DNA of 64,000 nucleotides from Klebsiella phage vB_KpM_FBKp24: the sequence record MW394391.1. One strand, written 5' to 3'. Made by a program: the position numbers and the translations under genes. Positions 4,026-14,159 of this stretch are shown piece after piece. The notes below the pieces were generated by a model that was given only the letters and a program-made list of their open reading frames with translations, made no database searches and was not told the DNA's origin. The first letter of the stretch is position 1, and each line of letters starts with the position of its first letter.

Positions 4026-6032
4026 GTGGATTTTGTTATGAGCACTAATTACGATAGGGGAATCACTGTGTTTAATTTTGCAAAAGCAGCTTTCGGAATG
4101 GTAGAGGTTGAAGAAGCAAACGGAAAAATCAAAATCACTGCTATCCGTTCTAAAGACGCGTTAAATGAAATTTATAATACTTGGCGAACATCTCGCATTG
4201 AACAAAGTATGTTCACTAAGATTACGCCCTACAGTATCGAGTTCTATAGTTTCTTTGCAGTAGAATTCGTTTACATACTGGATAAAATTATTGCCAAATC
4301 TGGCAGAAGCATGATTGCAAAGAAAACATTGAAACAAGTTAAAGAGGGCATTTTAACAAACACTTGGATGCGTTCTACTCAGATGGATCACGATCCTATT
4401 TTAGATCGTAGTAAACTGAGTCTGTTCACTAAAAGCCCACTCCGTCATCAAATGGAATTCATCGACCTCTACGACGACGTCGTTCCTAAATGGCAGCTAA
4501 ATGGATATTGCTTAGCAATGGGGACTGGCTCAGGAAAAACTCTCTCGTCGCTAATGATTGCAGAAATGCTCAACGTTGACATTATTGTCATGATATCATT
4601 AAAGGCGTCTATTTATCGTGTCTGGGAAGATGCGATGCAAAATGATTACAAGAAGACACCTGAATATTGGATTCAGGCGCGTGATGGGTCATTACCCTCT
4701 GGAACATTACCAAAGTATTTAATTTACCACATGGAAGCCATTGGTAAATTACTGGAAGATTCCGGGCGATTCACTGGTAAGAAAGTTGCGTTAATCCTCG
4801 ACGAATCCCACAAACTAAATGAACTAACTTCTCAACGTACGCAAGATATCTTACAATTCTGCAAACGTGTTCAGCCTGTTACAACGCTATGGGCTTCTGC
4901 TACGCCTATCAAAGCATATGGCTCTGAAGCCATCCCGATGCTGGCGACATTTGATAAAATGATGACGTTAGAGGCTATGGAAGCCTTTAAGAAACTGTAC
5001 GGGAAGTCAAGTAAGAAATGTTTCGACATCATTCGTCATCGTATGGGTAATGTAACATTTAAAGTGGAGGTTGTTAAATCCAACCCAATCATCGAGAACG
5101 TTCCGGTCAAACTGAAAGACCCAGAGAAGTTTTTATTGTCTACGTTGAAAATGGACATGAAAGATTATATTCTGGAACGCATTGCGTATTGGAAAAATCT
5201 CGAACCACAAGTTAAGCTGGGTTATTATTCTGGCGTAGACAAATACGCTCGTACTGTTAAGACTAAAGAACAAGAAGCTCAATTAAAACAATACCGACGT
5301 TTTGTTGAGCAAATCTCTAAAACCACCGATTACCAAATGGTGAAAGAAGAGATGATGTTCTGTAATAAGTTCGAAAAGAATTTAATCGAACCCTTACTGC
5401 GCGGAGAAGATTTAAAGAATTTCCGTAGTTACAAATCGGTGATCAAATATTTACCGTTAAAAGTCCGTGGTGAGTGTTTAGGTAACGTCGTAGGGAAGCG
5501 AAGGGAAGAAGTTACGCTTGCTTTAATACCAGCGTGTGATCTGCCTAAATACATTAAGGCGGCGGAGAAGAAAACTATTGTTTTTACCAGCTACGTGAAA
5601 GCGGTGGAAATAACAGAAGACTATCTGGTGTCGAAAGGGTTCAAACCGGTAACTGTTTACGGAGAGGGTGAAGATTTAACTAAACAAGTGAAACGGTTCT
5701 TTGATGACAATAACATTAACCCATTAATTGCAACGTATCAAAGTTTATCTACTTCCGTTCCGTTGATTGCCGCAAACGTTATTTTAGCTATTAATGCACC
5801 GTTCCGTGATTACATCATGGAACAAGCTATTGGTCGTATTGACCGTATTAACCAAAGCGCACAAACTTATGTCTTTAAATTCTATTTGGAGACATCGGAA
5901 CCTAATATCAGTAGCCGCACACTTGATATCTTAACCTGGTCGGAAGAACAGGTGAATCAGATACTCGGTGTGAAAGAGGAAGCGGTCGCGTTGGAAGCTT
6001 GGTCGCTTGAAGCTATCCCGCAGTACACGTAA
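4026..6032 (+). CDS. SF2 DExH-box helicase (SNF2/UvsW-like)
   Basis: Motif I AMGTGSGKT, motif II LILDESHKL, motif III WASATP. C-terminal helicase domain features. Confidence 0.8.
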   Translation: MDFVMSTNYDRGITVFNFAKAAFGMVEVEEANGKIKITAIRSKDALNEIYNTWRTSRIEQSMFTKITPYSIEFYSFFAVEFVYILDKIIAKSGRSMIAKKTLKQVKEGILTNTWMRSTQMDHDPILDRSKLSLFTKSPLRHQMEFIDLYDDVVPKWQLNGYCLAMGTGSGKTLSSLMIAEMLNVDIIVMISLKASIYRVWEDAMQNDYKKTPEYWIQARDGSLPSGTLPKYLIYHMEAIGKLLEDSGRFTGKKVALILDESHKLNELTSQRTQDILQFCKRVQPVTTLWASATPIKAYGSEAIPMLATFDKMMTLEAMEAFKKLYGKSSKKCFDIIRHRMGNVTFKVEVVKSNPIIENVPVKLKDPEKFLLSTLKMDMKDYILERIAYWKNLEPQVKLGYYSGVDKYARTVKTKEQEAQLKQYRRFVEQISKTTDYQMVKEEMMFCNKFEKNLIEPLLRGEDLKNFRSYKSVIKYLPLKVRGECLGNVVGKRREEVTLALIPACDLPKYIKAAEKKTIVFTSYVKAVEITEDYLVSKGFKPVTVYGEGEDLTKQVKRFFDDNNINPLIATYQSLSTSVPLIAANVILAINAPFRDYIMEQAIGRIDRINQSAQTYVFKFYLETSEPNISSRTLDILTWSEEQVNQILGVKEEAVALEAWSLEAIPQYT

Positions 6033-7627: not shown

Positions 7628-7827
7628 TGTTTAGGCTCTCTATTTGATAATCAAACCGAATGTCATTTATTCTCGGAGTTGTTCTGACCGTGAAAGAGTG
7701 GCAAAAGCAATCGTCACTAACTATCGGTTTAAAAAGTAAGTTGGGATTTTCAAATTTCAATGGGTTAGTAATGGCAGCAGATAATACAGAATTAATCTGC
7801 ATACCCACGAAAATACTGATTGCGTTC

Positions 7828-8028
7828 TTAACGAACATCATTCCTCCTTTGGTTTAATTCTGTTCTGGTCGGTTTTTCAGCATCAATAGGCTCCAACCAA
7901 AAATGATTACATTCCCTACATTCCCAAGTTATTTCATTGTCTTCCTCATCGTAGACCTGAGAGCAATTCATAGCTTGACAAATAGGGCAATCTACCCCCG
8001 TCCATTGTATTGTCATGGTTTTACACAC
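7828..8028 (-). CDS. small zinc-ribbon protein (CPIC...CRECNHFW)
   Basis: Two CxxC pairs. GTG start in the ORF track, or an internal ATG. Confidence 0.45.
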   Translation of the reverse strand: MCKTMTIQWTGVDCPICQAMNCSQVYDEEDNEITWECRECNHFWLEPIDAEKPTRTELNQRRNDVR

Positions 8029-8513
8029 ATGTATTTGGTCTGCTCCAGGAAACCCTGAGACTCATAAAATTTCTGAGCAGAAGTATTGTAAAGGTGTACC
8101 GATAAACTAACCTGATCGATAGCTAGGTGTTTTGCGAACATCCTAACCTGATTCACTAATGCTTTACCATAACCGTTACGACGATAAAGGCGTTTAACGT
8201 AAAGATAACTAATCGACATCCAGTTAACGCTACCGTTAGCGATAGGCTGCGTATATTCAACAAACCCGACTACTTCTTCTTTATTTACCGCTAAGAGGAT
8301 ATTAGTCTGGTCCGTCCAACGATCGATCAGTCTTTCCGTTTTCTTCTCGTTGGTGAGAATATCTAGGTTACTCCGGGATTTCCAGAACGTGGCCTCTTTT
8401 TTATCCATGTCATGGAACATCTCTAAAAGTTCTTTTTCGTACTTGGCGGTTTCTGGGTCTTCTGGACCGAGTAATAAAACAAATTCCATTGGTTCTCTCC
8501 TGGTTGATGGCAT
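8013..8513 (-). CDS. GNAT family N-acetyltransferase
   Basis: GNAT motif A RRNGYGKALVNQV (R/QxxGxG/A acetyl-CoA binding), about 166 aa. Confidence 0.7.
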   Translation of the reverse strand: MPSTRREPMEFVLLLGPEDPETAKYEKELLEMFHDMDKKEATFWKSRSNLDILTNEKKTERLIDRWTDQTNILLAVNKEEVVGFVEYTQPIANGSVNWMSISYLYVKRLYRRNGYGKALVNQVRMFAKHLAIDQVSLSVHLYNTSAQKFYESQGFLEQTKYMCVKP

Positions 8514-8682
8514 AAAGGGAAGAGCTTACGCCCCTCCCTCAGCCCGAGTAATTGAATGTCTCACGACAAGCAACGTCGTATTGTTGCCACGCTGATTTCT
8601 CAGACGAAGCTACCGCGCTGGCATCGCAGTTCGGTTAACAGGTGGTGCTGTTCATAAGACAGCACCCGACTGTAAAATTAAA

Positions 8683-8835
8683 TCAACTACCCAGTTTGTC
8701 AACGACTTTGTCTTTCACTTCGTTAAACTTGTCAGCGACTTTATCCAGGGTAGGATCCATTTTCGCTTTGTGTTTACGGTAAACAAAGATTGCGATGACC
8801 GCAACAACCAGAACACCTGCAATAGTACCAATCAT
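8683..8835 (-). CDS. small single-pass membrane protein (about 50 aa)
   Basis: Hand-translated MIGTIAGVLVVAVIAIFVYRKHKAKMDPTLDKVADKFNEVKDKVVDKLGS. Not in the ORF track because it is shorter than 60 aa. Confidence 0.5.
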   Translation of the reverse strand: MIGTIAGVLVVAVIAIFVYRKHKAKMDPTLDKVADKFNEVKDKVVDKLGS

Positions 8836-8890
8836 GGTATTTTACCTTTAAAAAATAAGATTAACTGATTCATAAAAATAACAGCATAAA

Positions 8891-8912
8891 GAGAGGGCCT
8901 TCCGGCCCTCTC
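8891..8912 (-). terminator. intrinsic terminator (GAGAGGGCC-TTCC-GGCCCTCTC) followed on the minus strand by a T-rich run
   Basis: 9-bp GC stem then TTTATGCTGTTATTTTTATG on the minus strand. Lies downstream of the tRNA/ncRNA region. Confidence 0.55.
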
Positions 8913-9671
8913 TCGTACTGACTTAGCGTCAAAGGAATTTGAGCAGTTAAATCGTACTGTAACCGCAGTGAAGATTTATCATGCTCGCTTTCCTTCGTGT
9001 TTCAGTCGCCACCGAAACACCTACTTTCTCGGCTATACGAGTTAGCTTAATTTCCAGATTTTTAATACCCGATCCCTTCTACGTTGGAGAAATGGATCGA
9101 ATAGAGGTGACGCCCCCCGGACATTTTTGCCGGCTTCTTATACCCCTTTCGCCGACGCATCGGCTGGGGTTAATGGTCTGTGGCCGCCTATTTTCGCTCT
9201 GAGGCGTAGGCCGCCGAAAATGACAGGCGTCATAATTAGTACCCCTCGGCCGATTCCGCGGCGCGTTTAACCGGCGGGTCGCCGAAGTCTTTGTCTCCCC
9301 AGAGTTACTACTGTGCTATTACACGGTAGACAAATCATTCAGGAATTGAACCTGAACTCCCTTAGCTAACAAGCCTCTACTATTGACCAGGAATCTAACC
9401 TGCACTCGCTGTAAACAATATCACTTGACTAGAGTAGTATTGTAAAGGTGGTTGATAGGTACCGAATCGAACGGCTATCTCGGGCTCCCATGTTAAGGCG
9501 CCCCTCGCATGGGAGGGGGCCTAATGCCCGCGCTTTACCTTTAAGCTAGCCTATCATTGAAAAGGTTCTCCATACCCAGTGGGTACTACCTACACCCGCT
9601 TTCGCATCATGAATAAAGAATAGCGTCATTGACGACTAAACAATTCAACGGTAGTCTACATGGAGATAATT

Positions 9672-9761
9672 TGGCAGAGAGTGAGAGATTTGAACTCTCG
9701 GTACCCTTTCGGATACATTCCCTTAGCAGGGGAACGACTTAAACCACTCATCCAACTCTCT
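9672..9761 (-). tRNA. tRNA-Ser (anticodon GCU), type II with long variable arm, CCA encoded
   Basis: Acceptor AGAGAGT/ACTCTCT, anticodon arm TTCCC-CTGCTAA-GGGAA, variable arm TGTATCCGAAAGGGTACC, T-arm GAGAG-TTCAAAT-CTCTC. Confidence 0.8.
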
Positions 9762-9769
9762 ATTAAAAT

Positions 9770-9844
9770 GCGACTCTTCCAGGACTTGAACCTGGGACCT
9801 ACAGCTTAACAGGCTGCCGTTCTAACCAACTGAACTAAAGAGTC
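9770..9844 (-). tRNA. tRNA-Asn (anticodon GUU)
   Basis: Acceptor GACTCTT/AAGAGTC (7/7), D-arm GTTC...GAAC, loop CTGTTAA, T-arm CCAGG-TTCAAGT-CCTGG. Confidence 0.85.
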
Positions 9845-9850
9845 ATTATT

Positions 9851-9925
9851 TGGCGGTGCTACGGAGAATCGAACTCCGGTCTCCTCCGTGACAGGGAGGT
9901 ATCCTTTCCGCTAGACGATAGCACC
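9851..9925 (-). tRNA. tRNA-Asp (anticodon GUC), CCA encoded
   Basis: Acceptor GGTGCTA/TAGCACC, anticodon arm CCTCC-CTGTCAC-GGAGG, T-loop TTCGATT. Confidence 0.8.
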
Positions 9926-9933
9926 TTTTTGTT

Positions 9934-10035
9934 TGGTTGTTCCCTTCCGGATTTGAACCGGCAACCTCCTGCTAAGCAGTGGGCGGCGCAGTGGCCGCCG
10001 GTGCAGGCGCTCTACCTAGTTGAGCTACGAGAACA
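9934..10035 (-). ncRNA. aberrant tRNA-like gene (about 102 nt) with a 23-nt GC hairpin insertion in the anticodon arm
   Basis: Canonical D-arm GCTC-AACTAGGTA-GAGC, T-loop TTCAAAT, terminal ACCA. Anticodon stem CCTGC...GCAGG is interrupted by ACCGGCGGCCACTGCGCCGCCCA before loop CTGCTTA. Confidence 0.4.
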
Positions 10036-10042
10036 TAGTATC

Positions 10043-10116
10043 TGGAGCAAGCAGCGAGGTTCGAACTAGGGGTACGGGGATCAAAGCCCCGGGCCTTAAC
10101 CGCTTGGCTATGCTCC
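10043..10116 (-). tRNA. tRNA-Gln (anticodon UUG)
   Basis: Good anticodon arm CGGGG-CTTTGAT-CCCCG and acceptor GGAGCA/TGCTCC. T-stem imperfect in my hand fold. Confidence 0.55.
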
Positions 10117-10124
10117 TATGCGTT

Positions 10125-10208
10125 TGGTGGGGAAGGGTAGATTCGAACTACCGAAGCCGAAGCAGCAGATTTACAGTCTGACCCATTTGACCACTCTGGA
10201 ACTTCCCC
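10125..10208 (-). tRNA. tRNA-Tyr (anticodon GUA), type II, CCA encoded
   Basis: Acceptor GGGGAAG/CTTCCCC, D-arm CCA...TGG, loop CTGTAAA, variable hairpin GCTTCGGC, T-arm GTAG-TTCGAAT-CTAC. Confidence 0.85.
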
Positions 10209-10391
10209 TGAATTTGGGGCCCGATTATTTCAGCGCTGCATTCTTTACTCTCGGGCCGAGGAGCACTATTAGTTTCTTCTCAGGGCGTATTGTTTTCCCT
10301 CTGAGACTTGCGCAATGTTTGAACAGGTTGATTGTTGTCTTAACATTCCGGAGAGAAAGTTACAATCTTTGTTCATAAGATATTGATTTAC

Positions 10392-10751
10392 TTAATTTTT
10401 GATCTGCACATCAGGATTCCCATTAACCGACAGCCAAATGTCGGCAACTAAAAGAATCTGTCCACCATACTGATTGACCTGCTGCCACCCATTCTTTTTA
10501 GCGGCAACTGTAATCATTGATAAAAATTGATTTTTCCAATGACTTTGATAAATCTGGGAATGATGAATTATTCGGCGGTTTTCAAACTTCTCGATGGTCT
10601 CAAATTCTTTCGTCGCGCTGATCATAGCAAAAACATCTTTAGACTTGATCAAATAAGCAGGGTCATTAATAGACCGATCGGAAGCTAAAGGAAGACGAGA
10701 AGAAATATGGTCAACGTCTTCTTGATTGTGTGCAAACGTTACGTCGTTCAT
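10392..10751 (-). CDS. hypothetical protein 119 aa embedded in the tRNA region
   Basis: ORF between two tRNA sub-clusters. Confidence 0.5.
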   Translation of the reverse strand: MNDVTFAHNQEDVDHISSRLPLASDRSINDPAYLIKSKDVFAMISATKEFETIEKFENRRIIHHSQIYQSHWKNQFLSMITVAAKKNGWQQVNQYGGQILLVADIWLSVNGNPDVQIKN

Positions 10752-10833
10752 TTTTACTTTTACCTTTTACAAGTTAGCGGTCTAAACCAAAATAGGAAGA
10801 CCAACAAAAACTGTGGGATGAATAATAATGAAG

Positions 10834-10907
<74 letters not shown>

Positions 10908-10912
10908 GTAGA

Positions 10913-10997
10913 TGGTGCCCAGGGCGGGGCTCGAACCCGCACGCGATAAAGCGAGGGATTTTAAATCCCTTGTGTCTGCCGATTTCACCACCTGGGC
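10913..10997 (-). tRNA. tRNA-Leu (anticodon UAA), type II, CCA encoded
   Basis: Acceptor GCCCAGG/CCTGGGC, anticodon arm AGGGA-TTTAAAA-TCCCT, long variable arm, T-arm CGGG-TTCGAGC-CCCG. Confidence 0.85.
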
Positions 10998-11002
10998 AAA
11001 TA

Positions 11003-11078
11003 TGGTGGGTCCAGCAGGTTTTGAACCTGCGACCAAGCGATTATGAGTCGCCTGCTCTAACCACTGAGCTATGGACCC
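11003..11078 (-). tRNA. tRNA-Met/Ile2 (anticodon CAU), CCA encoded
   Basis: Acceptor GGGTCCA/TGGACCC, D-arm GCTC-AGTGGTTA-GAGC, anticodon arm GGCGA-CTCATAA-TCGCT, T-arm GCAGG-TTCAAAA-CCTGC. Confidence 0.85.
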
Positions 11079-11129: not shown

Positions 11130-11294
11130 TCAGCTAGATTGTTTCTTTTTCTTTCTGAAAGCTAACTGCACATAAATAGCAATTGCACCAGCAAGAATAA
11201 TAAGCAGGACAATGTCAATCAACACACCTGCCATTCGAAACAATACTAAAAAGATGACGGCCAGTATTATTAACCAGCCGATCTTTTTCAGCAT
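11130..11294 (-). CDS. small hydrophobic membrane protein (about 54 aa) immediately downstream of the solute-binding-protein gene
   Basis: Hand-translated MLKKIGWLIILAVIFLVLFRMAGVLIDIVLLIILAGAIAIYVQLAFRKKKKQSS, with two predicted TM segments. Below the ORF-track size cutoff. Confidence 0.45.
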   Translation of the reverse strand: MLKKIGWLIILAVIFLVLFRMAGVLIDIVLLIILAGAIAIYVQLAFRKKKKQSS

Positions 11295-11297
11295 AAC

Positions 11298-12155
11298 TTA
11301 TTTCCCTGACGCTGTACCCTGGATACGCGCAGAGTTCTTCAGAAGAATCGTAGAGGCGTCTTCCAGTAACTGATCGCTATCGCCGGAGGTGTTTGCTACC
11401 ACCAGGGTTTTAGTGCAAGGTACTTTTACTGTCGAGTTAAAGATAATACCCGAGTCAGTAGTTGCCTTTTCGATCGTGTATACCGCTTTACCGTTTGGCA
11501 GTTTTGCATCGGCGTTCCAGGAATTGAAATCAATGATTTCCAGTCCGGAGTCTTTTTGCATAACAGCATCAAGGAACTTATTGTTTCGATCAGGCGCTGA
11601 GACCCAGAGGAATGCATCGTACTCGCCGGTATTCACTTTAGCCAGGGACCGGATACCGCCCTTAGCGTAGGTTTCAACTTTCGCGTAGTTCTTTTCCAGA
11701 GTTTGGAGATACTGCCATGAGGCATAAGATCCGGAAGTAGGTTCGCCGACGGCAATCTTGGTCCCTTCCTTCAGGTCACCTTTGCTTGTGACCTTACCGT
11801 CTTTCTTGACGGCAACGAAAACGCACTCGGAAGCCAGTTCGCCGATGATGTCAACGTTCTGTGCTTCATTAGCATGGCGTGAACGCCAGAACTGATACGC
11901 GTCAGCTTGAGTAAAACCGATAGTTGCTTCACCGGCGGCGACACGATCCAGGTTATCGAGTGATCCTTTAGAGGGGAGCACAGTGGTCTGATAGCCGTAT
12001 TCGCCGAGAGCGCTGGCTAAGTTAACACCGTATGTGGCGTTATACGTCAGACCTTGTTGACCGGTCGTGATAACAACTTTGTCAGATGCCGCAGAGGCAC
12101 CAACGGAAAGGCAAAGCAACGCTACCGAAAACACGGCAAAAGCAAGTTTCTTCAT
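11298..12155 (-). CDS. periplasmic solute-binding protein, TAXI (TRAP-associated) family-like, with signal peptide
   Basis: Signal peptide MKKLAFAVFSVALLCLSVGASAAS. TTGQQGLTYNATYGVNLASAL and SKGSLDNLDRVAAGEATIGFTQADAY match the TAXI TGGxxGxYY / SxGSxENLxLLxxGEADxAxxQxDxAY signatures. Confidence 0.65.
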   Translation of the reverse strand: MKKLAFAVFSVALLCLSVGASAASDKVVITTGQQGLTYNATYGVNLASALGEYGYQTTVLPSKGSLDNLDRVAAGEATIGFTQADAYQFWRSRHANEAQNVDIIGELASECVFVAVKKDGKVTSKGDLKEGTKIAVGEPTSGSYASWQYLQTLEKNYAKVETYAKGGIRSLAKVNTGEYDAFLWVSAPDRNNKFLDAVMQKDSGLEIIDFNSWNADAKLPNGKAVYTIEKATTDSGIIFNSTVKVPCTKTLVVANTSGDSDQLLEDASTILLKNSARIQGTASGK

Positions 12156-12666
12156 TTGTCAATTTCCTTGAAGGGTGTCAATGCGGTTTACCCGCTAAGA
12201 GATTTGAGCGGATGACGAGTTGGCCCAACATTTGTATCAACCTGCGTCTACTAAAAAGGGCTTGCCTTTGTTTCGTGCTACCTGTAAGGGTTTAAGGTTA
12301 AGTTTGTTGCAAGTCATCCGCTCAAAAGGGTGATGCTTTCTGTAAGTTTCAGCTCATTCCATTCTTTGGTTTCCGGGCCACAGTAGGATTAAAGGTGAAA
12401 GGTCTGCTGGAACAGATTTTCTTACAGAAAGGCATCGATAATAAAAAAACAGGCTTCGAGAAAAAGAGAGTTAGCTATGGGAGTTTAACTACATCGAAGC
12501 CTGGTTGGAAAATGTGTCGTTGTCTCCCCGATGAGGGGAGAACCGTAAAGCAAATGTTCTTATCTTTCCAGCCAGCCCGCTATCGAGATAATCCGAATAT
12601 GAACAATCGCTTTTTGACGTTATTTCGTAACGACGAGAGTTTACTACCGTGAAAGGAACCTTTGGT

Positions 12667-12873
12667 TCATAACTCTGACGACTGAGTAAATTTTAACCAA
12701 AGTGGTAAAGGTACTTTTTGGAATTCCGTTCCTTGACACTCATTGCAGACTAACGGCTCTTCTTTGATTTTCCAGCGCTCAAGTTGTTTCTTCGTGGCTG
12801 GGGTTAAACAATTTACGCATTGCATTTCCACTGCCATAAATTTGCCTTCTAGATAAAAGACCAATCTTCCCAT
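12667..12873 (-). CDS. small zinc-ribbon protein (CVNC...CNEC)
   Basis: Two CxxC pairs. Overlaps the end of the upstream gene. Confidence 0.35.
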   Translation of the reverse strand: MGRLVFYLEGKFMAVEMQCVNCLTPATKKQLERWKIKEEPLVCNECQGTEFQKVPLPLWLKFTQSSEL

Positions 12874-13976: not shown

Positions 13977-14078
13977 TTTATAATCTAGTGCTCTACCAGC
14001 TGAGCTATCTGCCTCCAAGAAACACTCTGTGAATGTGTCCTGGTAGGCAGAGCGGAATTCGAATCCGCGACCTCTAGA
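13977..14078 (-). ncRNA. circularly permuted tRNA-like gene: 3' half (nt 39-76 including CCA) encoded upstream of the 5' half (nt 1-38), 26-nt linker
   Basis: Minus strand reads TCTAG-AGGTC-GCGGA-TTCGAAT-TCCGC-TCTGCCT-A-CCA, then a 26-nt linker, then AGGCAGA-TA-GCTC-AGCTGGTA-GAGC-A-CTAGA-TTATAAA. Acceptor 7/7 and anticodon stem 5/5 complementary between halves. Confidence 0.5.
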
Positions 14079-14159
14079 ATTCTTTCCGTAAAAGAAAGAA
14101 AGTTCAGTCCGCTATTTTACTGTCTACTCTTTATCTTTAAGCGTGTGAGGCGATAAGAT

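Follow-up and report, generated by a model that had tools for sequence, protein, structure and literature searches.

A TAXI-family binding protein gene and a mini membrane protein gene as a candidate mobile two-gene envelope cassette in Klebsiella phage vB_KpM_FBKp24 and other phages

Two adjacent genes and the proteins they encode

The 64,000-nucleotide (nt) stretch of DNA analysed here, referred to below as the window, belongs to Klebsiella phage vB_KpM_FBKp24 (phiKp24; sequence record MW394391.1). It carries on its minus strand two closely spaced genes, one for a 285-residue protein of the TAXI family of solute-binding proteins (SBPs), the family name standing for TRAP-associated extracytoplasmic immunogenic and TRAP for tripartite ATP-independent periplasmic, and the other for a mini membrane protein of 54 residues. 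The TAXI gene occupies 11298..12155 (-), TAA stop included, with a Shine-Dalgarno-like AAGGAA at 12164..12169 (-), 8 nt ahead of its ATG, and its codons 1-22 (12090..12155, -) encode a Sec signal peptide, MKKLAFAVFSVALLCLSVGASA, for which sequence and hydropathy predict cleavage after ASA22. A GTT spacer of 3 nt (11295..11297, -) lies between its TAA and the ATG of the mini-protein gene (11130..11294, -), which encodes two predicted transmembrane helices and has its own Shine-Dalgarno-like AGGGAA upstream; the two open reading frames (ORFs) are in-frame with each other. The original prediction had placed both ORFs at these positions, 3 nt apart, and had quoted two peptides as TAXI signatures, both of which were found, at residues 30-50 and 65-87. 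It had also spoken of a lytic jumbo phage. The size class is confirmed by the 98.8% identity of the region to the 300-kb Klebsiella phage vB_KpM_Centimanus, and a group of ~300-kb Klebsiella jumbo phages is ~85-87% identical over the region; the label lytic is taken from the phiKp24 literature.

The 285-residue product is 100% identical to the phiKp24 protein, which NCBI already names 'TRAP transporter solute receptor, TAXI family', and homologues in Erwinia jumbo phages are annotated 'putative TRAP transporter solute receptor', 'TAXI family' or 'immunogenic protein'. The TAXI annotation is correct, already public and not new; the gene goes unmentioned in the phiKp24 genome paper (PMC8386662) and in the phiKp24 structure paper.

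Read from the sequence, the N-terminus MKK-LAFAVFSVALLCLSV-GASA, followed by ASDK, has the n-h-c build of a signal peptide, with a basic n-region, a hydrophobic core and an A-x-A motif at -3/-1 that places cleavage between ASA and the next A. By hydropathy this segment is the sole hydrophobic stretch of the protein, and 121 of 124 family representatives likewise begin with a signal-like segment. The predicted signal is a classical Sec/signal peptidase I one, in line with the signal peptide originally proposed. Lipoprotein anchoring of the SBP was considered and is ruled out, as the sequence 'ALLC' is no lipobox and a lipobox occurs in just 4 of the 124 relatives.

The protein scores 48.2 bits against NMT1_3 (PF16868), the Pfam model of the TAXI family, for which the gathering score is 27, and it matches phrog_6856 at 8.7e-108. 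A single-sequence search of the Protein Data Bank (PDB) gave a best TAXI match of merely E 0.15, and because the single sequence barely matched any solved structure a family profile and a fold search were needed. The profile of 26 family members matches TtGluBP (E 1.4e-11), the Ehrlichia 'immunogenic protein' and VcGluP at E values of 1e-11 to 1e-8. The AlphaFold model, built on the family alignment, has a pLDDT of 88.5, and the Foldseek matches at ranks 1-7 in the PDB are all TAXI SBPs (E 2.7e-15 to 6.4e-13, TM-score 0.61-0.70, 16-18% identity), followed by ABC-type and GluR0-type binding domains; the model thus falls in the TAXI fold and in no unrelated one. Taken together, the Pfam score, the profile matches and the seven leading structural matches uphold the proposed family membership; with a TIGR02122 score under the cut-off (see below), the protein is a divergent TAXI member, and its modelled fold is that of a two-lobed type II (cluster F) periplasmic binding protein with TAXI structures as the nearest solved ones.

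The ligand cleft was mapped by family-profile alignment to VcGluP (8s4j) and TtGluBP (1us4), combined with the published glutamate site of VcGluP, which consists of Y45, S75, Q93, E125, G156, Y200 and M201, Y45 and Q93 being the two residues whose mutation cripples binding (PMC11574862). In the profile alignment Y45 corresponds to phiKp24 Y38, S75 to S65, Q93 to Q83, E125 to E110, G156 to G142, Y200 to the likewise aromatic W184, and M201 to V185, and D85, beside Q83, is also listed among the predicted pocket residues. Conservation was assessed in 124 family representatives at 50% clustering (an earlier set had 26 members) and amounts to 95% for Y38, 86% for S65, 94% for Q83, 98% for D85, 94% for E110 and 98% for G142, with an aromatic residue at position 184 in 78%. 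The contacts to the alpha-amino and alpha-carboxyl groups of L-glutamate in VcGluP and TtGluBP are kept (Y38, S65, Q83, E110, G142, W184); the distal side-chain positions S40, Y46 and H123 of VcGluP align with Q33, N39 and A108 and are variable within the family. The Arg that marks DctP-type SBPs is absent from the phiKp24 cleft in the alignment. Since the residues that hold the ligand backbone are conserved, at 78-98% among the 124 relatives, the ligand-binding cleft appears to be retained, and loss of the cleft was not seen. The predicted ligand is an L-alpha-amino acid, with a Glu/Gln-like one as first guess for phiKp24, and side-chain specificity probably differs between sub-lineages.

The cysteines C111 and C247 are ~90% conserved, both in the 26 and in the 124 family members. 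In the AlphaFold model they lie on the long predicted strands 101-117 and 241-255, matching the TAXI hinge, and they likely form a periplasmic hinge disulfide.

According to hydropathy, the 54-residue partner consists almost wholly of two hydrophobic spans split by F-R-M-A-G, and both ends are basic, with MLKK at the N-terminus and the tail RKKKKQSS at the C-terminus. An N-in/C-in topology with a very short periplasmic turn is predicted on account of these basic termini and the positive-inside rule. The motif R20-x-x-G23-x-L25-x-D27 is located at the predicted turn and the start of the second helix, and its four named residues are invariant in the alignment of the phiKp24/lambdoid type of mini protein. 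To this type belongs the 50-residue ORF of a lambdoid prophage (MIKRVGWWTLFIVSLFIAWRLAGVLMDFALL...KAKK), which is a clear homologue of the phiKp24 54-mer; homologous partners of 41-59 residues directly follow the TAXI gene in lambdoid prophages. Searches of Pfam, NCBIfam and PHROG with the phiKp24 mini protein gave chance-level matches only. Two transmembrane helices and a charged tail fit a holin architecture; no significant holin match was obtained in Pfam or PHROG, no endolysin gene is adjacent to the cassette in the window, and the lambdoid prophages carry a separate, recognisable holin just downstream of the cassette. One group of lambdoid prophages (L019, L021, L022, L026 and similar loci) has a mini protein cut to 41 residues that has lost the basic tail, and an 86-residue predicted lipoprotein (MKSIRLFIGVVIIGALSGC...) is encoded there at 4107-4367, between the cassette and a Phage_holin_8 holin.

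Conserved pairing, phage contexts and neighbouring genes

Small hydrophobic ORFs adjoining the SBP gene on the same strand were looked for at 87 phage loci, and in ~80 of these a two-transmembrane protein of 41-62 residues with basic ends is encoded next to the TAXI gene. It is located downstream, at a gap of 3, 2, -1 or -4 nt, in the Klebsiella jumbo phages and lambdoid prophages, and upstream, at a gap of -4 or ~60 nt, in the Erwinia jumbo phages, a Cobetia prophage and the loci L011, L013 and L076/77. The stop and start codons of the two genes often overlap, i.e. the genes are translationally coupled. The genes have stayed adjacent despite changes in their order, which counts as good evidence that TAXI protein and mini protein are functionally linked.

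A search of 5.8 billion proteins returned 101 homologues of the 285-residue protein. Those at 71-75% identity are nominally bacterial (Phytobacter, Kluyvera, Citrobacter, Enterobacter, Salmonella and E. coli), and for Phytobacter and Kluyvera the examined contigs show the gene in lambdoid prophages, at a constant site where the Q antiterminator gene is followed by the TAXI gene, the 50-residue ORF with a 4-nt overlap, and then the holin-endolysin-spanin genes. At 41-46% identity the homologues come from a Cobetia prophage and metagenomic phage contigs, and one member at E 1e-50 is located on a 136-kb phage-like contig. Homologues are also encoded by 44 GenBank phages, among them Klebsiella, Erwinia and Salmonella jumbo phages and Pseudaeromonas KLEP7, with distant ones in rhizobial and other phages, and IMG/VR adds 77 loci. 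The relatives of at least 41% identity with an examined context are reported as phage-borne, in jumbo phages and in lambdoid and other prophages, and the clade is essentially phage-restricted. In a hidden Markov model census with clustering at 50% identity, 140 clusters were counted at E <= 1e-30; thresholds of 1e-10 and 1e-3 gave 1223 and 5129.

Orphan relatives located on bacterial chromosomes, with 37-50% identity, occur in Granulosicoccus, Neptuniibacter, Marinobacterium and Cocleimonas, those of Granulosicoccus and Neptuniibacter/Oceanospirillaceae being 37-46% identical. The Granulosicoccus gene (L100-L105, L109) adjoins genes for a PfkB kinase and an acyl-CoA synthetase, and the Neptuniibacter/Oceanospirillaceae orphans are those at L098/L099; these marine gammaproteobacterial orphans may be the cellular source of the phage clade. 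Some relatives in the representative library have 2-4 tandem TAXI-like domains in a single long protein, such as P0137 (1137 residues), P0194 (1063 residues) and P0169 (2478 residues), and P0178, P0193, P0211 and others are of the same kind.

Compared with the lambdoid prophage copies the phiKp24 protein shows 73-75% identity, as against 66-70% for those of Erwinia jumbo phages, and it shares gene order and mini-protein type with the lambdoid ones. Since the phiKp24 copy is nearest to the lambdoid copies, the cassette tracks host range (Enterobacterales) and not phage lineage, and judging by these identities the same two-gene cassette moves horizontally between temperate and virulent phages. 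In complete E. coli genomes it is rare, being present in only 3 of 5426, in prophages. The GC content of the TAXI gene is 0.495, to be compared with 0.459 +/- 0.037 for long ORFs of the phage. Recent capture from a host was considered and is ruled out by this phage-like composition and by the lack of any close Enterobacterales homologue outside prophages. The original prediction had framed the gene as belonging to a jumbo phage, which was right as to the identity of the DNA; that the pair is mobile and common to lambdoid prophages and unrelated lineages had been overlooked.

The scan for permeases covered the 64-kb window of the ~300-kb genome and the flanks of related loci. No ORF of at least 100 residues with at least 4 transmembrane segments is present in the window, so that the originally noted lack of a DctQ/M-like or ATP-binding cassette (ABC) permease holds for this stretch, and a polytopic permease was found in the flanks of 0 of 90 phage loci scanned. 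The sole polytopic membrane protein in these flanks is a recognisable Phage_holin_8 in five prophages. As a positive control, a ~620-residue permease of the DctM family (DctM 2.4e-82) directly follows the distant cellular TAXI genes of Gemmatimonadota (L113), whose products are 28-31% identical to the phage protein. E. coli K-12 is not known to have a TRAP permease of the TAXI type.

In the lambdoid copy L004 a strong intrinsic terminator follows Q at 7727-7748, the cassette lies at 8001-8986, and two further terminators (9329 and 9583) precede the holin gene at 9659. From this arrangement the lambdoid cassette is predicted to be the first unit of the Q-antiterminated late operon, just ahead of the holin, and owing to the late-operon layout it should be made in lytic growth. 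A convincing sigma-70 promoter of its own was detected neither in phiKp24 nor in the lambdoid copy, counts being at the level of shuffled sequences, which is a weak test.

In the window the cassette sits inside the phage tRNA cluster. ARAGORN places tRNA-Met, tRNA-Leu and tRNA-Arg directly downstream on the same strand (10833..11078, -) and a suppressor-type tRNA with anticodon TTA 1.9 kb upstream, again on the same strand (14041..14125, -). In all there are nine tRNA genes, at 9672-11078 and 14041-14125 (Ser, Asn, Asp, Gln, Tyr, Arg, Leu, Met and Sup-TTA), in agreement with the nine reported for phiKp24, tRNA-Sup-TTA included (PMC8386662). The genome paper proposes that the suppressor tRNA reads opal, TGA (PMC8386662), whereas an anticodon TTA pairs with UAA (ochre). 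Three related Klebsiella jumbo-phage loci (L001, L014 and L015) have exactly the same in-frame junction, AAATAAGTTATG, and it is a matter of speculation that ochre readthrough by the phage suppressor tRNA could yield a 341-residue TAXI protein with a C-terminal anchor of two transmembrane helices. Of 26 long ORFs in the window 20 end in TAA, the most frequent stop codon there, and for this reason the in-frame junction may be coincidence. In Centimanus (L001, 7177-7638) an HNH endonuclease gene is inserted between tRNA-Met and tRNA-Leu, which are merely 5 nt apart in the window (10998-11002), and Centimanus also has a tRNA-Gly that ARAGORN did not report in the window. The TAXI gene of Erwinia phage Asesino likewise lies among tRNA genes; beside the prophage copies there are none, and the tRNA neighbourhood is a trait of jumbo phages and of P1, not of the cassette. 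Upstream of the phiKp24 cassette, on the same strand, a 68-residue zinc-ribbon-like ORF with two CxxC pairs is located at 12667-12873 (-), and the 510-nt spacer between them holds an 85-residue ORF on the opposite strand that is annotated in Centimanus.

Some relatives have a further neighbour. In the Erwinia phages Asesino, Huxley and Caitlin a TerB-like gene, the mini-protein gene and the TAXI gene lie together inside the tRNA cluster; the mini proteins match PHROG 1470, 'TciB-like', at 1e-19, and the TerB gene matches PHROG 632. The metagenomic phage L013, which is unrelated, also has a TerB gene ahead of the pair. In P1, tciA (TerB-like), tciB (54 residues, two transmembrane helices) and tciC are flanked by tRNA genes. 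The order TerB/TciA-like gene, TciB-like mini protein, TAXI runs over 1216-2729 in L002 and 2785-4253 in L013, and the P1 locus corresponds to 25234-25930 of L091. This suggests a wider TerB-associated phage membrane module. The phiKp24 mini protein itself was tried as a TciB-like protein, and this is unsupported, the hhalign probability being 3.6% and PHROG 1470 not being matched in the PHROG search. No TerB gene was found near the cassette in the window, adjacency being limited to some Erwinia phages and L013, and the Ter/Tci connection is to be taken as a lead and not as a classification. In PADLOC-DB neither the SBP nor any of seven mini proteins found a significant match.

SBPs of other kinds are also encoded by phages. 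Matches in BFVD show that uncultured Caudovirales encode orphan SBPs of the Bug/TTT family, another secondary-transporter class, and in the Ralstonia jumbo phage RP12 an SBP-like ORF adjoins ABC transporter subunits. Orphan SBPs may thus be a broader phage theme. As for related phage ORFs, the literature searched refers to one just in passing, a TRAP-receptor-like ORF of Ralstonia jumbo phages.

Possible functions of the pair

On balance, and with only slightly more confidence than doubt, we favour the interpretation that the two genes make up a self-contained, mobile, TRAP-independent phage envelope cassette. A periplasmic ligand binder of the TAXI family would have lost its TRAP permease and would work with a cognate two-transmembrane mini protein. 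After export and signal cleavage, the SBP would fold in the periplasm with the C111-C247 disulfide bridging its two hinge strands, bind a ligand of the L-amino-acid type and dock in a ligand-dependent manner on the turn R-x-x-G-x-L-x-D that the mini protein would expose to the periplasm, with the basic termini of the mini protein facing the cytoplasm. The pair itself would then exert its output at the inner membrane, instead of TRAP-type import. Such an output might consist in envelope sensing, in control over membrane state or lysis timing, or in exclusion of other phages, and in lambdoid phages the cassette would act during lytic growth.

Several observations weigh against an autonomous pair. 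The partnership of the two proteins rests on gene adjacency, and the partner scan of 87 loci did not detect a mini transmembrane neighbour at KLEP7, L073 and L081-L083. Homology between the mini proteins of different phage lineages was not detected either, the hhalign probability given above being that of the phiKp24 type against the TciB type. The chromosomal relatives at 37-50% identity have neither a mini-protein neighbour nor a permease, so the SBP can evidently exist alone. The strongly conserved small-molecule pocket is exactly what would be expected of a transport SBP, for which a host membrane partner is possible. As to the family assignment and the pocket, the score against NCBIfam TIGR02122, TRAP_TAXI (residues 1-257), is 63.6 bits and thus under the cut-off of 84.35, and the pocket mapping is a sequence-profile alignment at 16-18% identity, drawn without superposed coordinates.

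A role in metabolism, as was originally proposed among other candidates, is possible though doubtful: the SBP would be the product of an auxiliary metabolic gene (AMG) and pass an amino or organic acid to a host carrier, either a TAXI-TRAP QM permease or a GltS-type symporter, thereby raising uptake, much as cyanophage PstS does through the Pst system of its host, and the mini protein would be accessory or unrelated. Nutrient-related morons are found at the Q-to-lysis site of lambdoid phages, for instance NanS-p in Stx phages, and this counts in favour of such a role, but from a late-operon site there would be scant time to profit from uptake. In its TAXI fold and in its near-identical pocket for the ligand backbone the protein matches glutamate-transport SBPs; at just 16-18% identity to characterised TAXI proteins, however, it is doubtful whether a carrier-docking surface is conserved, and a compatible carrier would be needed in each of a diverse set of hosts (Klebsiella, Erwinia, Phytobacter, Kluyvera, E. 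coli, Pseudaeromonas and Cobetia). TAXI SBPs do pair with non-TRAP carriers such as GltS (PMC12344293), phages also carry the orphan Bug/TTT-family SBPs described above, and PHROGs lists neighbouring gene classes as 'moron, AMG and host takeover'. Against this, a permease is linked to the gene at none of the phage loci scanned, and a pure SBP add-on would not need the constant two-transmembrane companion. The phage-restricted, permease-less context of a mobile cassette weakens the view of plain nutrient uptake through a TRAP permease and points toward a function shared with the mini membrane protein. Another alternative, independent of a ligand, is superinfection exclusion (also proposed originally) or envelope protection, in which SBP and mini protein together block DNA entry or damage from rival phages or colicins after the manner of T4 Imm and Sp, P1 Sim, or the Ter/Tci systems of tellurite and colicin resistance and phage inhibition. 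We consider this unlikely as the specific function, even though the cassette is present in temperate and virulent phages, occupies a classical moron site and has a two-compartment build of a periplasmic and a small inner-membrane protein. The TciB-like Erwinia partner (phrog_1470) with a TerB/TciA homologue (phrog_632) ahead of it mirrors P1 tciA-tciB-tciC, and L013 has TerB upstream of the pair; but the adjacent TerB is missing from phiKp24 and the lambdoid copies, and the Tci genes are themselves without demonstrated function. Moreover, the PADLOC defence models match neither protein, a blocking protein has no evident use for an invariant small-molecule pocket, and a promoter of its own for expression in the lysogen was not detected (the weak test mentioned above).

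It is very improbable that the genes are hitch-hiking or decaying cargo, that is, a captured orphan SBP gene followed by a chance hydrophobic frame. Orphan TAXI genes do occur in bacteria and the mini ORF belongs to no database family, yet full-length, signal-bearing copies with conserved pocket and cysteines are present among phages at 35-75% identity, the mini ORF is retained in ~80 loci with invariant residues and coupled start and stop codons, and the base composition of the TAXI gene is near that of the phage. A bolder idea, which we regard as decidedly unlikely, is that the pair is a split ligand-gated device in which a glutamate-type sensor docks on a holin-like mini protein and shifts its oligomeric or channel state. 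By analogy, this would be a two-piece counterpart of ionotropic glutamate receptors, with an SBP-like ligand domain and a minimal pore, and its biology would parallel lysis inhibition by T4 RI and the holin. Glutamate is the dominant cytoplasmic solute freed by lysing neighbour cells, and since lysis frees glutamate such a device could let phages read that lysis is taking place nearby. If true, it could retune lysis timing or close the envelope to superinfection, and the Klebsiella jumbo phages could add a membrane-tethered fusion through ochre readthrough.

Significance and comparison with known systems

SBPs of secondary transporters are seen as parts of cellular uptake systems; here a clade of ~140 clusters appears mainly phage-dwelling and carrier-less, with a mini membrane partner of its own, and its cassette seems to be exchanged among phages of one host range, both temperate lambdoid and virulent nucleus-forming jumbo ones. 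In the literature searched we did not find a phage-restricted, permease-less clade of this kind with a conserved mini transmembrane partner, nor the lambdoid late-operon position of the cassette or the conserved Glu-type backbone pocket. Should the autonomous-cassette interpretation favoured above be right and the pair work alone, it would be a new kind of phage envelope module made from a transporter part, and would add to recent evidence for non-TRAP partners of TAXI proteins. Should a host carrier be fed instead, it would be a non-marine, amino-acid-directed case of a phage AMG. In either event the cassette is relevant to Klebsiella phage-therapy candidates such as phiKp24.

The phage protein can be compared with VcGluP/VC0430 (8S4J, 9IBO) and TtGluBP/TTHA1157 (1US4, 8U79), with which it shares the predicted cluster-F fold, Sec export and the cleft residues Tyr, Ser, Gln, Glu and Gly plus a second aromatic; the DctP-type Arg is absent from both. 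It differs in length, the mature phage protein having ~263 residues and theirs ~300, and in its cysteines, since C111 and C247 are on hinge strands whereas the disulfides of VcGluP are intradomain. It also differs in genetic context, as the phage gene is without an adjacent fused Q-M permease and is paired with the two-transmembrane mini protein. In Bordetella pertussis, too, a TAXI SBP works without a TRAP membrane component, in the TAXI-GltS system (BP0403/BP0402), and its gene is translationally coupled to that of its membrane partner. This partner is a complete Na+/glutamate symporter, and the Bordetella SBP is a lipoprotein that forms an elongated dimer (PMC12344293), whereas the phage SBP is short and soluble and a 54-residue partner with two transmembrane helices cannot be a carrier alone.

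For the mini protein, a parallel is the tciA-tciB-tciC locus of P1 (PHROG 632/1470), where TciB is also a two-transmembrane protein of ~54 residues and the locus is tRNA-flanked as in the Erwinia phages; P1, however, has no TAXI gene there, and Tci function has been assigned 'by homology' only. Small phage proteins of the inner membrane or periplasm that act at the envelope during infection include T4 Imm (two transmembrane helices) and Sp (periplasmic), the RI antiholin and P1 Sim (periplasmic); they are found in virulent and temperate phages alike, and sim genes are seen in the P1 sequence. The cassette proteins have no sequence or fold kinship with these, none of which is an SBP with a small-molecule pocket. 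Finally, cyanophage PstS is a close relative of the host protein and feeds a known host ABC system, Pst. Both it and the phage TAXI protein are periplasmic binding proteins encoded by phages without a matching permease, but the hosts of the TAXI clade have no cellular protein close to it, and it brings its own membrane partner.

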